Assembly (NCBI RefSeq): GCF_033153115.1
Contig: NW_026889763.1
Coordinates: forward strand, 19,344,001 to 19,408,000
From: Saccostrea echinata
Taxonomy: Eukaryota
Direction of reading: 5' to 3'
DNA length: 64,000 bases
In this document: piece after piece, positions 15,885-35,329 of the stretch
How the letters are laid out: each line of letters begins with the position of its first letter
Position numbering within the stretch: the first letter of the stretch is position 1
The notes under the pieces: model-generated
Seen by the model: the letters and a program-made list of their open reading frames with translations, nothing else
Databases searched by the model: none
What the model was told of the DNA's origin: nothing
Translations under genes and position numbers: made by a program

Positions 15885-16369
15885 AGTCATTTTGATATGG
15901 AACATCCTCATATAGTGTAGATTCAAGTTTTTTATGCTCCGCCATGAATATGGCCGAGGCATATAGTGTTTGTCATGTGCGTTTTCCGTCCTTCCATCCT
16001 TCCGTCTGTCCTTCTAGATCTGTCGCACTTTGCTTTAGCTCAGCTAAAAGCTCAGTTTCAAAGAAACTATCCAAGATATTTTATCAAACTTCATATGCTG
16101 ATAGATATTGATAAGAGCTATGCAACTGCATCAGCATTTTTTGACCTTGACCTTTCCTTTGGCCTCACTTTTCTTAAACTAGTTTTAGCTCAGTTTTGAA
16201 GATAGTATTAAAGATGGTATAATCAAACTTCATATGTTGATGCATACTGATGTAAGCTATTCAACTGCATCGACATTTCTGACCTCAACTTTTCCTTTGA
16301 CCTTGACTTTACTTTTCTTTAAATTAGTGTTTAGCTTAATTAAATGAAATCATTCAAGTTACTGTAATC

Positions 16370-16548
16370 AGTAGTATAAAGGGTCTAGTTGGGCGGGTCA
16401 ACTGAGTGCACTCCCCCCCCCCCCCCAGAGTTCTAAAAATAGACCTGGGGATGGGTCTAAAAATAGATAGACCTGTTCTAAAAATAGATAGACCTGGGCT
16501 GGGTCTAAAAATAGATTTTAAAATTCTAAAAAAAAATAGATAGACCCT
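16370..16548 (+). repeat. Polinton left TIR
   Basis: AGTAGTATAAAGGGTCTAGTTGGGCGGGTCAACTGAGTGCACTC(C)n..., reverse complement of 34103-34359 but with fewer internal repeat units. Confidence 0.95.
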
Positions 16549-16747
16549 AATTCTTTTATAAACTTATATTGTTTTTTGCACAGCTATACTAACTCTTACT
16601 ATAATGAGATTCATATAAAACACCAGTCATACAGACTCACGATCCAACTATTTTTTTTTTATTCATAAAACAATAATAACAAAAAGGATTTGAAATATTT
16701 ATATCATTTAAAGAACAATAATAACAAAAGTTTGACACATCTCAAAC

Positions 16748-17220
16748 TCAAATCACCTTCTCTGGATCTGGAATTAAAGGGATGCGACAATGCATGTACA
16801 CTGTATAAGTCTCTGGAAGAAGCCCTTGTCTCCTTCTATGTTCGAATTCATGAAAACAATGTTGAATTTCAAATTTCCAGCCACTTTGATGAACCATATT
16901 AATATGATCAGTTATGATCACCCATTTGTATCTTTGATAACCTTGATAACCATGTTTCCTTTCCGTAAGACAGTATTGGTCCTCTCTCTTCTCATAATCT
17001 TCAGGATCAAATTTCACTCTTTTTTCCAACCACACTTTTTTTGGTATTTTGGATTAAATATTCGATTTCTGTTATAGTAATTCAGGCTAGCTTCTTCCTC
17101 AGTTTTTATCCAATCTCCCACTTTATCACCGTTAATACACCAACGATACTGGATAGCTTCTTCCTCAATTTTTATCCATTCTCCCACTTTATCACCGTTA
17201 ATACACCAACGATACTCCAT
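16748..17220 (-). pseudogene. Polinton left-end accessory gene of unknown function (about 157 aa if a frameshift in the A-run at about 17036-17042 is repaired)
   Basis: ORFs 17014-17220 and 16748-17035 join across a homopolymer. There is a 63-bp tandem duplication (YRWCINGDKVGxWIKxEEEA x2) and an upstream TATA + TCATT module. Confidence 0.55.
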
Positions 17221-17485
17221 CTTTGTACGTCTGACTTTTTTTTCAGAATGAGAAAGTTTGTTTTTTCTCTACCTCTTTATATACCTTTTTCTCAAAATCT
17301 ATTTTTAGTCTCATCTATTTTTAGCTCTTTTAACTAGTATTATTCTCGACTATTTTTAGTCTCAACTTAATTTAATCTATTTTTAGTCTAATCTATTTTT
17401 TTTATCTCTTTGTTACTATAAATATAACAGCACCAGTGTCCTATGGAAAAAACCCCTTACCTTTGCATTAAGACTTCATCCAGGG

Positions 17486-31098: not shown

Positions 31099-32600
31099 CG
31101 TCGTATCGCTGAATCAGATAGCTAACGAATGACAGTTAACAGCTGACAAGCGTCGGTATTTATACACACAGCGCGAGCCGAAAAGAGAGCACCCAAAAGC
31201 CCGGATGACGAACAGCTCAAAAAATCATGGAGAATTCAAATTTGTGTTATTCTGTGTTTGTGAATACATCTATTGGAGTAAATAAGTTATTATGGAATGA
31301 TATATACTTTCAAACCCTCCAGTGAAAGAATGAAGGTAAGTTTTGAGGATGATTTCACAGTATTATTCATACATGACATTCCTCCGTTGTTTAGAACAGG
31401 CTCATTCATGTCGAACCGAAGGGCTAACCTTGACTGACCTGAACACATAAAATAAGAAGTTAAGCTATTTTAAAAGTGTGACACAAAGAAAACTTAATGT
31501 ATATAATAAGATTGAACCTAAGGAAAAGTGTTGATATGGTTTTTAAATCAAAAGAATCGTTGCAAGTGGAGAAATAAACTTAGCGTCGGTTTAGGGATAA
31601 AGACAAGGGAGGTCAAAGGACAGCCATTTTCAGAAAATCATTGTATAGACTTGTATAGAGCCTATAAGATTTTTTTTGCAATCCTGATCTTTTATGATAA
31701 AAATTTTGAAATGAATACAATCGGAAACTTATAAAAATCATTTGTATCTACTTTATTTCCAATGGGAAAGTCTACATTTTAAAAGAAAAACCCTATTCAT
31801 ACACGCAGTGTTGGTACAACAGACACCGTGTTACACACATACATTTGATTTTTGTATTGTAACCTTATGAAAATAGAATTGTGAGATCAATACAATCGGA
31901 AACTTATAAAAATCATTTGTATCTACTTTATTTCCAATGGGAAAGTGTAGATTTTATAAAAAGACCAAAAAAATCTCAGCGTCTTAAAAAGGACACAAGA
32001 TGGCGTCATACACTAATTACAATGACGTATTGTAATTCTTTTATTGCATTATTTCTTGAAGACTAACAATTGTTCAAACTGCCAAATTCTCCTTTGAAAT
32101 CTTAATCGATCCGCTACTAGAGCCATCCATTTCACTTTTCCGATCATCGGGGGTGGTAAATCGTAATTTTTTTTATTGAAACTCGTATTAAAAGTCACAC
32201 GCAAAGTTTGATTTTAGATATTAAACTATCATAGCTTTTTTAAGAGTAGGCTTAAGTTAAGTTTTTTTTTGCACAAGGTGTTTTTAAGACTCTTGAATCG
32301 GTGCCAAGATTAGGTACATGACCTGTGCAGGTGTTTTAAGAATCAGATCTCGTGCTCAATATATATTATTATAGTAACAAAAAAAAGTGAAAAAAAAAAT
32401 AGTTTTTCAGACTTGAATCGATGCCAAGATTAAGTACATGATCTGTGCAGGTGTTTTAAGAATCTCATCTCGTGCTTTTTTCTTTTTTTTTTTGCACGAG
32501 ACCCTTAAGTAAAAAAGGTATATAAACTCAGAGTTGAGTCATTTATAGCATCAGTCTTTCAGTGAATACTTGCAGAGAATAGATAGGAAGGACACAAGTA

Positions 32601-33556
32601 ATGATGAATCCTAACGATGTTTCAGAGCAGAATCTTCCAGAACTGATCAGCAGGGAAGATTTTGAATGGATAGTGAATGAGATTAAAGATCCCATTGGAT
32701 TAGATTTGGACATGTATCACATTCCAGAACCCATCACCAAGGAAGATATTTCAGCTGAGAATATTCCAGAACTAATGAGCAAGGAAGATTTGGAATGGAT
32801 AGTGAATGATGTTAAAGATTCTATTGGATTGGATTTAGGGGTCTACCTCATTCCTGAACCCATGACTAAAGAAGAGATGAGGAAAAAAGGTATGTAAACA
32901 CAAGAGTATATAGCATCTGTCTTGAGTTAGTATTTTTTTTTTGGCAGAGAATAGATATAGGACACATGCAATAATAAATCTTCATTATGTTTTCAGATGA
33001 GAATCTTCCAGAACTAATAAGCAAGGAAGATTTAGAATGGTTATTGAATGACGTTAAAGATTCTATTGGATTGGATTTAGGGGTCTACCTCATTCCTGAA
33101 CCCATGACCAAAGAAGAGATGAGGAAAAAAGGTATGTAAACACAAGAGTTCATAGCATCTGTCTTGAGTTAGTATTTTTTTTGGCAGAGAATAGATATAG
33201 GACACATGCAATAATAAATCTTCATTATGTTTTCAGATGAGACTCTTCCAGAACTAATAAGCAAGGAAGATTTAGAATGGTTATTGAATGACGTTAAAGA
33301 AGATCCCATTGAATTGGATTTGGAAATGTATAACATTCCAGAACCCATGACCAAAACAGATATGAGGATCTTGAGGAGTCAAATGAATGACATTGCTAAT
33401 TTACTGGAGGATTTTAAAACAAATAAGGACACCGCAATGTGTTTATTACAGGAAAGATTATCCAGATTAGAAGGACAAGTCACCAACCATGATAGAAAAG
33501 AACATGAGAGGCGGTTCTTACCAGAAAAGAAAAGACTCACCAGCCCTCAAAAATGA
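32601..33556 (+). CDS. Spliced acidic-repeat accessory protein (exons 32601-32889, 32997-33131, 33237-33556; 247 aa; may extend to 33800 via a frameshift)
   Basis: Two AG|GTATGT...TTTTCAG| introns (107 and 105 nt), both phase 1 and frame-restoring. Four LPELISKEDLEW..DLxxYxIPEPMTKE repeats. Confidence 0.75.
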
Positions 33557-34102
33557 GTGTATAGAGGATCAACACTTAGTGAAAACTCAGGACAAAAAGA
33601 CCCAGAAACAAAAAAAGACTGAGGAACAAAAAAAGACTCCTTTTGTGATGTTATATGATGTAGAAAAGACTCTTAACACAGTGAGTAACAAAAGAAAACT
33701 TCAGAATAGTGATATAAATGACAAACTGAAAGCGAAAATCCAAAGAAAAGATCTAAAGGATAAAGTGAAAATCCAGAAAAAAATGGACACTTTCTGGTGA
33801 ATTAGTGTTGTGATTATTAGTGTTTTAATATTTTTTTATGAATCATCTATAAATTTTTGAAATCCTTCTCATGTTTTTTTTTTGGTTTTGTACACTCTAG
33901 TGTGTGTAAAAACCTTGGTTTTCAGAAAATAGAGAAACGGTTGTGAATGACATGACGTCATAATGCATAAGTCGGTGTGAATTTGAATCCCTGCCAAGAT
34001 TATGTGTCTGTATGACTGGTGTTTTTTAAAGAATCTCATTATAGTAACAAATAGATAGCTGTGTCGAAAAAAACAACCTCTATATAAGGCTATCAAAGGA
34101 TA

Positions 34103-34359
34103 AGGGTCTATCTATTTTTTTTTTTAGAATTTTAAAATCTATTTTTTAGACCCATCCCAAGTCTATTTTTAGACCCATCCCAGGTCTAGCTATTTTTAGA
34201 CCCATCCCAGGTCTAGCTATTTTTAGACCCATTCCAGGTCTATTTTTAGACCCATCCCAGGTCTATTATTAGACCCATCCCCAGGTCTATTTTTAGAACT
34301 CTGGGGGGGGGGGGAGAGTGCACTCAGTTGACCCGCCCAACTAAACCCTTTATACTACT
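34103..34359 (-). repeat. Polinton right TIR
   Basis: Reverse complement of the left TIR, with about 6 copies of a 24-28-bp unit TCTAAAAATAGACCTGGGATGGG. Confidence 0.95.
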
Positions 34360-35329
34360 GTAATCAAACTTCATATGCTGATACATACTGATGTAAGCTT
34401 TTCAACTGCATCAACCTTTTTGGCCTTGACCTTTCCTTTGACCTTGACCTCACTTTTCTTAAATTAGTGTCTAGATCAGTCTTGAATACACAATTCAAGA
34501 TAATCAAACTTCATATGCTGATACATACTGCTGAGAGCTATCAATTGCATCAACTTTTTTTTTTACCTTGACTTTACTTTTGACCTTGACCTTACTTTTT
34601 TAAATTAGTGTTTATCTACGTTTTAAATAAACCATTTATGATACTTTTATCAAACTTCATATATTAATAGTAAATACATACTGATGTAAGCTTTTTAACT
34701 GCATCAACATTTTAACCTCAAACTTTCCTTTGACCTTGACCTTTCTTTTCTTAAATAAGTGTTAAGCTCAGTTTTAAATAAATCATGCAAGATATTTTTA
34801 TCAAGTCTAGTATGCTGATATGTATTTAAGTGAGAGCTATTCAACTGCATCAAAAACTTTTCACCTTTCACTTTCCTGTGACCTTGACCTCCCTTCTCTT
34901 TAATTTGTATTTTGCTTAGTTTTAAAGAAACAATTTAAGATATTTTTATGTAAGCATGCATTAATACATAATTTGGTAAGAATTTTTCATCTATATCCAA
35001 TTTTTTTAAATTTTAGTTTCAATTCTAAAGAAACTGTTCAAGATATTCTCATCAAACTTCATGCACTCATACAAATTTTCAGGTTGCATTAGTAATATAC
35101 ATTCGGCGGGGCATTCATGTCCGATGGACATATTTCTAGTTTTCAAATCATGACCTCCGAGGGTAGGGTCAGGCAACAATAAGGGTTCAAAGTTTTATAT
35201 AGGAATAAAAGGAATAAAAAACAAGAGCATGATTAATATGGAAACATTCTCAAGAAGTGTAGATTCAAGTGTGTACAAATAATGACCCCATGGGTTAGGG
35301 AGGGGCCATTTTTTTTCTGCCCCTATTTG

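Follow-up and report, generated by a model that had tools for sequence, protein, structure and literature searches.

Contig NW_026889763.1 of the Saccostrea echinata assembly GCF_033153115.1 carries, between positions 19,344,001 and 19,408,000, an insertion of some 18 kb that raises two questions: whether it is a complete member of the capsid-encoding Polinton/Maverick transposons, and whether it could still act as one. We refer to the whole 64-kb stretch as the window and number it from its first letter on the forward strand. The original prediction for this DNA was of a Polinton/adintovirus-like provirus, and that classification is supported by the ends, the target-site duplication (TSD), the terminal inverted repeats (TIRs), the gene set and its order, and the folds of the capsid proteins. 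We are confident that the element, which spans 16370-34359 (17,990 bp), is a capsid-encoding, adintovirus-like Polinton/Maverick that inserted into a HINE-like repeat of an ostreid oyster genome and subsequently decayed neutrally.

Boundaries and insertion site

The features that define the ends and the site are as follows (subTIR, subterminal inverted repeat).

15929..16369, + strand: left half of the host HINE-like element, with subTIR, inverted repeat, 4-nt microsatellite and units of ~146 bp
16364..16369, + strand: left TSD, GTAATC, read from the sequence
16370..16639, + strand: left TIR, 270 bp, with AGTAGT tip, C-run and four copies of a subterminal word
34003..34359, - strand: right TIR, 357 bp, with six copies of the subterminal word and ACTACT end
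34360..34365, + strand: right TSD, GTAATC, read from the sequence
34360..35143, + strand: right half of the host HINE-like element, with units, 3' subTIR and palindrome
62347..63517, - strand: uninterrupted paralogous HINE-like copy, 77-82% identical, which sets the register of the insertion

The ends are of the (AGT)2/(ACT)2 type, with AGTAGT at 16370 and ACTACT as the last bases at 34359, and they are bordered by a perfect 6 bp TSD, for which the probability of chance 6-mer identity at two fixed ends is ~4e-4 given the base composition. Both the ends and the GTAATC duplication had been called correctly, the interval first given (16364..34365) taking in both TSD copies. The TIR tips are identical at 76 of the 78 outermost bases (97%), and in their outer part the repeats differ at 4 of 178 aligned columns; most of the difference in length between the arms reflects the 14-nt subterminal word, present four times on the left and six times on the right. 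Neither the element nor its TIR has a further copy within the 64-kb window. The four bases preceding the left TSD are the same as the last four of the element, with the result that a short palindrome surrounds the left junction (16360-16373), probably by chance.

Together the flanks form a single host element, 15929-35143, of the HINE-like (non-autonomous Helentron) kind. When the flanks are searched separately, the left matches 63517-63052 at 82% and the right 63057-62347 at 77%; they meet collinearly on this paralogue with an overlap of exactly the six TSD positions, where the hexamer of the paralogue is one base off GTAATC. Unit anchors on either side of the left junction are 145 nt apart, compared with 139-151 nt in four other neighbouring units, and the comparison unit near 16215 is present, in agreement with the proposal that removal of the element restores the host repeat unit. 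The uninterrupted copy had also been put forward as an empty-site control. It does fix the register of the insertion, but because its identity is only 77-82% we reject its reading as an empty allele: it is a paralogue, and uninformative on presence/absence polymorphism.

HINEs are defined by a 5' subTIR with inverted repeat and 4-nt microsatellite, central repeats, and a 3' subTIR with palindrome (PMC7492417), and left, central and right features of that definition can all be read in the host element. It resembles Cg_HINE of the Pacific oyster in its 5' subTIR, inverted repeat and microsatellite, its central 140-180-bp repeats, its 3' subTIR and palindrome, and its T-rich ends (PMC7492417), a likeness of anatomy and not of sequence to any named Cg_HINE family.

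Gene content and capsid folds

The genes on the + strand run in the order pPolB, ATPase, small basic open reading frames (ORFs), 123-aa ORF, conserved ORF, integrase, small hydrophobic ORF, penton, QxGxG ORF, major capsid and protease. The labels pm, pz and pw are those of vertebrate Mavericks.

17565..21513, + strand: protein-primed DNA polymerase B (pPolB), with N-terminal region, OTU-like Cys/His motifs, Cys-rich region, exonuclease, Vsr-like insert and palm
21609..22263, + strand: putative A32/FtsK-type packaging ATPase, with Walker A and Walker B in different frames; the position fits
22309..23268, + strand: small basic ORF(s), interrupted by a stop at 22567 and by one or more frame changes (inferred breaks); source of the 31-bp insertion (22687-22717)
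23274..23645, + strand: unbroken 123-aa ORF ending in QKGG and a hydrophobic/amphipathic tail; pm by position only
23642..24632, + strand: conserved ORF, pz by position only; P0241 and P0325 match parts
24629..25729, + strand: rve integrase with C-terminal chromodomain; DDE motifs in pieces
25378..25408, - strand: 31-bp inverted perfect copy of 22687-22717 that lies in the integrase and is bordered by an 8-nt direct repeat
25725..25964, + strand: small reading frame containing two hydrophobic segments; no significant family match
26289..27429, + strand: minor capsid protein (penton), with one frame change near 26470
27558..28076, + strand: ORF with QxGxG repeats, pw by position only; stop at 27855, which relatives P0090 and P0094 run past
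28115..29520, + strand: double jelly-roll major capsid protein, with a frame change near 29135-29155 and a stop at 29365
29520..30023, + strand: putative adenain/Ulp1-like cysteine protease, with a stop at 29559 (inferred break) and His, Asp, Gln and Cys motifs

The capsid proteins were identified only by structure searches, nothing significant being returned in sequence-level PDB searches by the major capsid piece or by the penton profile. The major capsid protein, 93-95% identical to relative P0002, was modelled as its unbroken 352-aa piece folded with 58 relatives (predicted local distance difference test, pLDDT, 72). The model aligns with a PBCV-1 capsid chain over 265 residues (Z 16.2, root-mean-square deviation 3.6); all 13 rows with Z of about 8 or more (VIA, 48,161 chains) are double jelly-roll-type capsid or scaffold proteins, and the top Foldseek match is Sputnik (E 1.2e-6). 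For the penton, which is split near its start in the window, we folded the natural relative P0361, matched by both window pieces (63% and 43%); its model (pLDDT 93.6) matches the mavirus penton (E 3.5e-11; Z 13.3, root-mean-square deviation 6.5, 252 aligned) as well as the Sputnik and adenovirus penton bases. The original prediction had staked itself on the capsid ORFs matching jelly-roll folds, and for both of them that match was found.

Two pieces of the polymerase score above the cut-off for PF03175 (DNA_pol_B_2; E 4e-24 and 1e-13), the pieces are each 74-87% identical to the 1345-aa relative P0121 in tblastn, and the Exo I-III and Pol A-C motifs are present. A profile of 58 pPolB relatives matches the phi29 polymerase (E 1.3e-5), and Vsr endonuclease is a weak match (E 0.026). 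The OTU-like Cys and His motifs in the N-terminal part are conserved in alignment with relatives, and no profile or fold match to OTU was found for this part. The Vsr-like insert gives weak Vsr, DUF559 and MTES matches, with the window deviating from the strict motif pattern at one position. In the integrase both the rve (E 6e-10; 39.8 bits against a cut-off of 32.6) and Chromo (E 5e-9) matches pass their Pfam cut-offs, and relatives are 93% and 86% identical.

The C-terminal piece of the ATPase has no significant match in a sequence-level PDB search, and the frame break of this gene, near a C11 run at 21739, is placed from its anatomy. The protease has no Pfam peptidase match; it aligns weakly with pS273R of African swine fever virus (E 0.051), the catalytic motifs being aligned, and its position after the major capsid gene fits. 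The small basic ORFs at 22309..23268 may encode virion core proteins, and 22309-22566 has no Pfam or PHROG match. The 123-aa ORF sits between the ATPase and pz, as pm does in vertebrate Mavericks. For the small ORFs generally there is no convincing family in Pfam or PHROGs, and none of 10 small window ORFs is present as an exact sequence in the protein collection. An Atlas search with a relative of the pw-position ORF gave no usable match; its QxGxG repeats resemble protease maturation sites.

Decay of the copy

Comparison with relatives anchors 13 breaks. Six of them are in pPolB, which has two stops (17880 and 19314) and four frame changes (near 18180, 18700, 20380 and 21260), two in the integrase (a frame change near 25100 and a second break at ~25370-25410), one in the penton, two in the major capsid gene (a frame change and a stop), one in the pw-position ORF (a stop) and one in the pz-position ORF (a frame change near 24390). 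A further 6-7 breaks are suggested by anatomy alone: one each in the ATPase, the protease and the RING region described below, two stops in the pz-position ORF (23747 and 24089), and one or two in the ORF at 22309. The earlier count of more than 15 lesions is therefore upheld, and the claim of a complete provirus holds for length only, every core gene being broken (six of six), whereas an intact Maverick has uninterrupted core ORFs (PMC8097293).

Three stops in ~2,314 homologue-anchored codons correspond to 0.7% substitution (95% confidence interval 0.14-2.0%), an estimate that omits the genes with no full-length relatives, which hold more stops; the outer TIR divergence gives ~1.1% per arm. 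Near-identical TIR tips alongside many lesions had been taken to suggest that intact relatives exist. That contrast is uninformative, because TIR divergence and stop load agree at about 1% and leave no puzzle; the intact relatives are instead backed, gene by gene, by rock-oyster gene models.

One integrase break coincides with the 31-bp inverted copy listed above, a match length that was reached in none of 100 order-4 Markov simulations (maximum 22). It looks like the scar left where a break was repaired by templated insertion.

In Polintons the ATPase packages linear DNA into double-jelly-roll capsids that are matured by the protease. Maverick replication is protein-primed from the (AGT)2 tips (PMC8097293), and the vOTU domain has been proposed to process the terminal protein (PMC11161782). 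The ancestor of this element would have been a linear DNA replicated by protein priming at its (AGT)2 tips and packaged by the ATPase into capsids that the protease matured, and its rve integrase would have inserted it, with a 6 bp stagger, into about the fourth unit of the HINE-like repeat. Some 1% substitution, small indels and one double-strand-break repair scar would then have inactivated the six core genes, and we infer that this copy is unable to replicate or to form particles on its own and is inert unless complemented.

Alternative explanations

The lesions could instead be older than the insertion, the element having been defective already at integration and mobilized in trans by an intact helper. 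Such a helper would presumably need just intact tips and TIRs, full-length relatives exist, and the load is indel-rich, with nine frame changes against three stops in largely the same core genes. The agreement between TIR divergence and stop load, on the other hand, leaves no excess of lesions to explain, and no sister copy with the same lesions was seen in a DNA-level search that covered this window only. We regard this history as unlikely.

Less likely again, and a slim chance at best, is an intact or almost intact copy in which most lesions are assembly or sequencing errors. The 16 catalytic motifs looked for are all (16/16) still present in the gene pieces, the TIR tips are 97% identical, and several frame changes lie near base runs. 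Error does not readily account for at least eight in-frame stops across six genes, for the 31-bp templated insertion in the integrase, or for the longer end branch of the window in the pPolB tree (0.089, compared with 0.041 for its Saccostrea echinata sister). The same window also holds an open Helitron frame of 1,873 codons (5.6 kb; 46906-52527) in which the rate of the element predicts 6.1 frame changes (P(0) 0.002); across 6.7 kb at that rate, the probability of at most one frame change is 0.006. Because this frame is open, window-wide sequencing error is unlikely.

Mis-assembly, whether by fusion of two distinct copies or by the placing of a free viral genome within the host repeat, is scarcely credible. 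In its favour, tandem-repeat elements such as the one at this site are prone to mis-assembly, and the two TIR arms disagree in their number of repeats and in their inner sequence. Against it, the 6 bp TSD is perfect, the flanks are collinear on the paralogue with exactly 6 nt of overlap, unit spacing is preserved across the junction, and no free virus would bear such a lesion load.

Several points do weigh against an insertion followed by neutral decay of a full gene set, the history that we prefer. The ATPase and the protease rest on sub-threshold matches and motifs, all Pfam matches of the ATPase being below cut-off (Pox_A32, E 0.012 and 0.088; FtsK, E 0.003), so that the predicted gene set stands for pPolB, rve and Chromo by Pfam and for the capsids by fold, with the ATPase below threshold and the protease at E 0.051. 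The penton fold was tested on P0361 and not on the broken frame of the window itself. The inner TIR is more diverged than the outer (11 mismatches in 91 aligned columns), for which reason the TIR clock uses the outer part. Runs of six or more bases lie inside five of the nine frame-change intervals (C11 at the ATPase), and some frame changes could therefore be sequencing errors; the junctions and single indels are known from the assembly sequence and not from reads. At otherwise invariant columns the window differs at 41 of 927 (4.4%), a weak measure, since relatives left out one at a time differ at 0.4-6%, and one at 16%; with the control range overlapping the test value, we set it aside as a gauge of decay.

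Relatives and phylogeny

Saccostrea echinata supplies the closest named proteins: for the major capsid protein at 93% (468 aa, 19 cluster members), for pPolB at 84% (1,345 aa, 10 cluster members) and for the integrase at 93%. Further relatives come from S. cucullata, Ostrea edulis and Crassostrea/Magallana. A pPolB tree was built from one unbroken piece and 34 named matches (35 rows), one short match being dropped and unnamed matches excluded; it places the window in an all-oyster clade of 11 rows (Saccostrea, Ostrea and Crassostrea; support 100/100), sister to the Saccostrea echinata protein. The tree is made up of search matches and includes no labelled Alpha/Beta or pPolB1/pPolB2 references. 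Judged from its closest named relatives, the host of the element would probably be a rock oyster (Saccostrea).

Among the matches listed, 64 of 119 for the capsid are at least 430 aa long, and 61 of 120 for pPolB, from a search limited to proteins of at least 722 aa, are at least 1200 aa. These lengths and the cluster member counts support the existence, gene by gene, of intact relatives, in the form of full-length homologous genes in rock-oyster annotations; the oyster relatives are gene models seen apart from their genomic surroundings, and fused or spliced predictions are among them. The annotation of one Saccostrea echinata model, P0143, joins a pPolB fragment with BIR and RING domains, a hint that an IAP gene may be carried by related Polintons of oysters or lie next to them. 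A literature search found no description of rock-oyster Polintons, Repbase, most subscription papers and some supplements being outside its scope.

Accessory region

Two further candidate genes lie downstream of the protease.

30443..31098, - strand: accessory region, 55% GC, C3HC4 RING plus Pro-rich tail, in two overlapping frames with one inferred break
32601..33556, + strand: acidic repeat ORFs within an array of 242/129-bp tandem repeats

The RING region matches zf-C3HC4_3 below cut-off (E 0.0012), and TATAAATA lies ~60 nt upstream of the RING/Pro-rich region. This region falls within a 55% GC island (30443-31180, - strand), and the element has no other substantial gene on its minus strand. 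The acidic repeat region is CpG-poor (observed/expected 0.16). Its two GT-AG segments, 32890-32996 (107 nt) and 33132-33236 (105 nt), share phase, and the acidic ORFs may constitute one spliced gene with an exon duplication; because the second segment is a tandem copy of the first, the phase fit counts as a single one-in-three event. No spliced Maverick accessory gene was described in the literature searched, most subscription papers being outside the scope of that search. Sites of the form TGACGTCA, which we take to be CRE-like, occur three times in intergenic gaps of the element (26111, 30128 and 33953) and once in the other 46 kb, numbers that are small. Short internal duplications are also present in the arms of the element, at 31692-31966, 32280-32476 and 17088-17216 (~102, 76 and 66 bp).

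Neighbouring repeats in the window

A third, partial HINE-like copy at 61760-62303 (- strand) lies in tandem with that at 62347-63517, and one of its units, near 62016, is natively GTAATC. Other 142-171-bp tandem arrays, similar to oyster satellites, are found at 35489-36288, 37575-38786, 44350-44791, 57755-58714 and 59658-61485, and some of these are inverted paralogues 24 kb apart. The open Helitron frame belongs to a near-intact, autonomous Helitron/Helentron-type gene at 45821-52527 (+ strand), with Helitron_like_N, DUF6570 and PIF1 in the 1,873-codon frame; a Herpes_teg_N deubiquitinase-like domain (E 1.5e-8) precedes it in another frame, and a 114-bp tandem repeat is included. This gene may be a partner of the HINE-like repeats. 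There are no Rfam matches in the window.

Comparison with known systems

The element shares (AGT)2/(ACT)2 ends and a perfect 6 bp TSD with the vertebrate Mavericks of Barreat and Katzourakis (PMC8097293), falls within their ranges of size (12.7-24.6 kb) and TIR length (46-1,447 bp), and has their two modules, pol-atp-(pm)-pz and int-mcp-pw-MCP-pro, end to end, together with an accessory region such as they also possess. Both modules here are on one strand and in one direction, an arrangement given among vertebrates only for Xenopus tropicalis (PMC8097293). It differs from them in its oyster host, in pm, pz and pw being matched by position and not by sequence, and in the possibly spliced accessory gene, intact vertebrate Mavericks being intronless (PMC8097293).

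The adintoviruses (Eupolintoviridae) of Starrett et al. (PMC8502044) are likewise elements of animal hosts with inverted terminal repeats, an OTU-bearing PolB (OTU-like motifs here), an rve integrase, an FtsK-type ATPase and an adenain (both putative here), and hexon-like and penton-like proteins; unlike those examples, which include a Pinctada (pearl-oyster) adintovirus map, the present copy is degraded. In the searched part of the supplement to that paper the strings Saccostrea, Crassostrea and Ostrea do not occur, and a motif search there likewise returned nothing (PMC8502044).

A mollusc host and a putative Vsr-like insert in pPolB are shared with the pPolB2 Polintons, with a VSR domain, of molluscs (Jeong et al., bioRxiv 10.1101/2023.08.22.554363), and Crassostrea virginica appears both in an alignment legend of that paper and in the clade of this element. 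We nevertheless reject the insert as a pPolB2 marker. The motif occurs in 93 of 120 fetched pPolB relatives, among which are named proteins from beetle, leafhopper and spider; it is widespread among pPolB matches and not mollusc-specific, ranging more widely than the pPolB2 group of Jeong et al. (10.1101/2023.08.22.554363), and for this reason the insert alone fixes no pPolB2 placement.

Implications

As a single locus the element matters little: defective Mavericks with such hallmarks are common, 96% of vertebrate copies being defective (PMC8097293), and Mavericks have been reported across mollusc genomes (PMC10294476). Its clean insertion, nested in a HINE-like repeat, makes it datable relative to that repeat and usable as a presence/absence marker, and many oyster gene models named 'uncharacterized protein F54H12.2-like' are Polinton capsids; Polinton-derived proteins more generally are annotated in oyster genomes as host genes, under that name or as LOC models.

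More tentatively, and with greater doubt than conviction, we suggest that the element belongs to an oyster-restricted Polinton lineage with intact, recently integrating, particle-forming members in oysters, equipped with an accessory RING protein and an intron-containing acidic-repeat activator. The accessory genes may presumably be likened to an ICP0/IE2-style RING protein and to an acidic-repeat activator. Maverick virions were unobserved as of one survey (PMC8097293). The element marks out an oyster clade that could be searched for intact copies, and if such a lineage exists it would offer a tractable animal system in which to ask whether Mavericks make virions.

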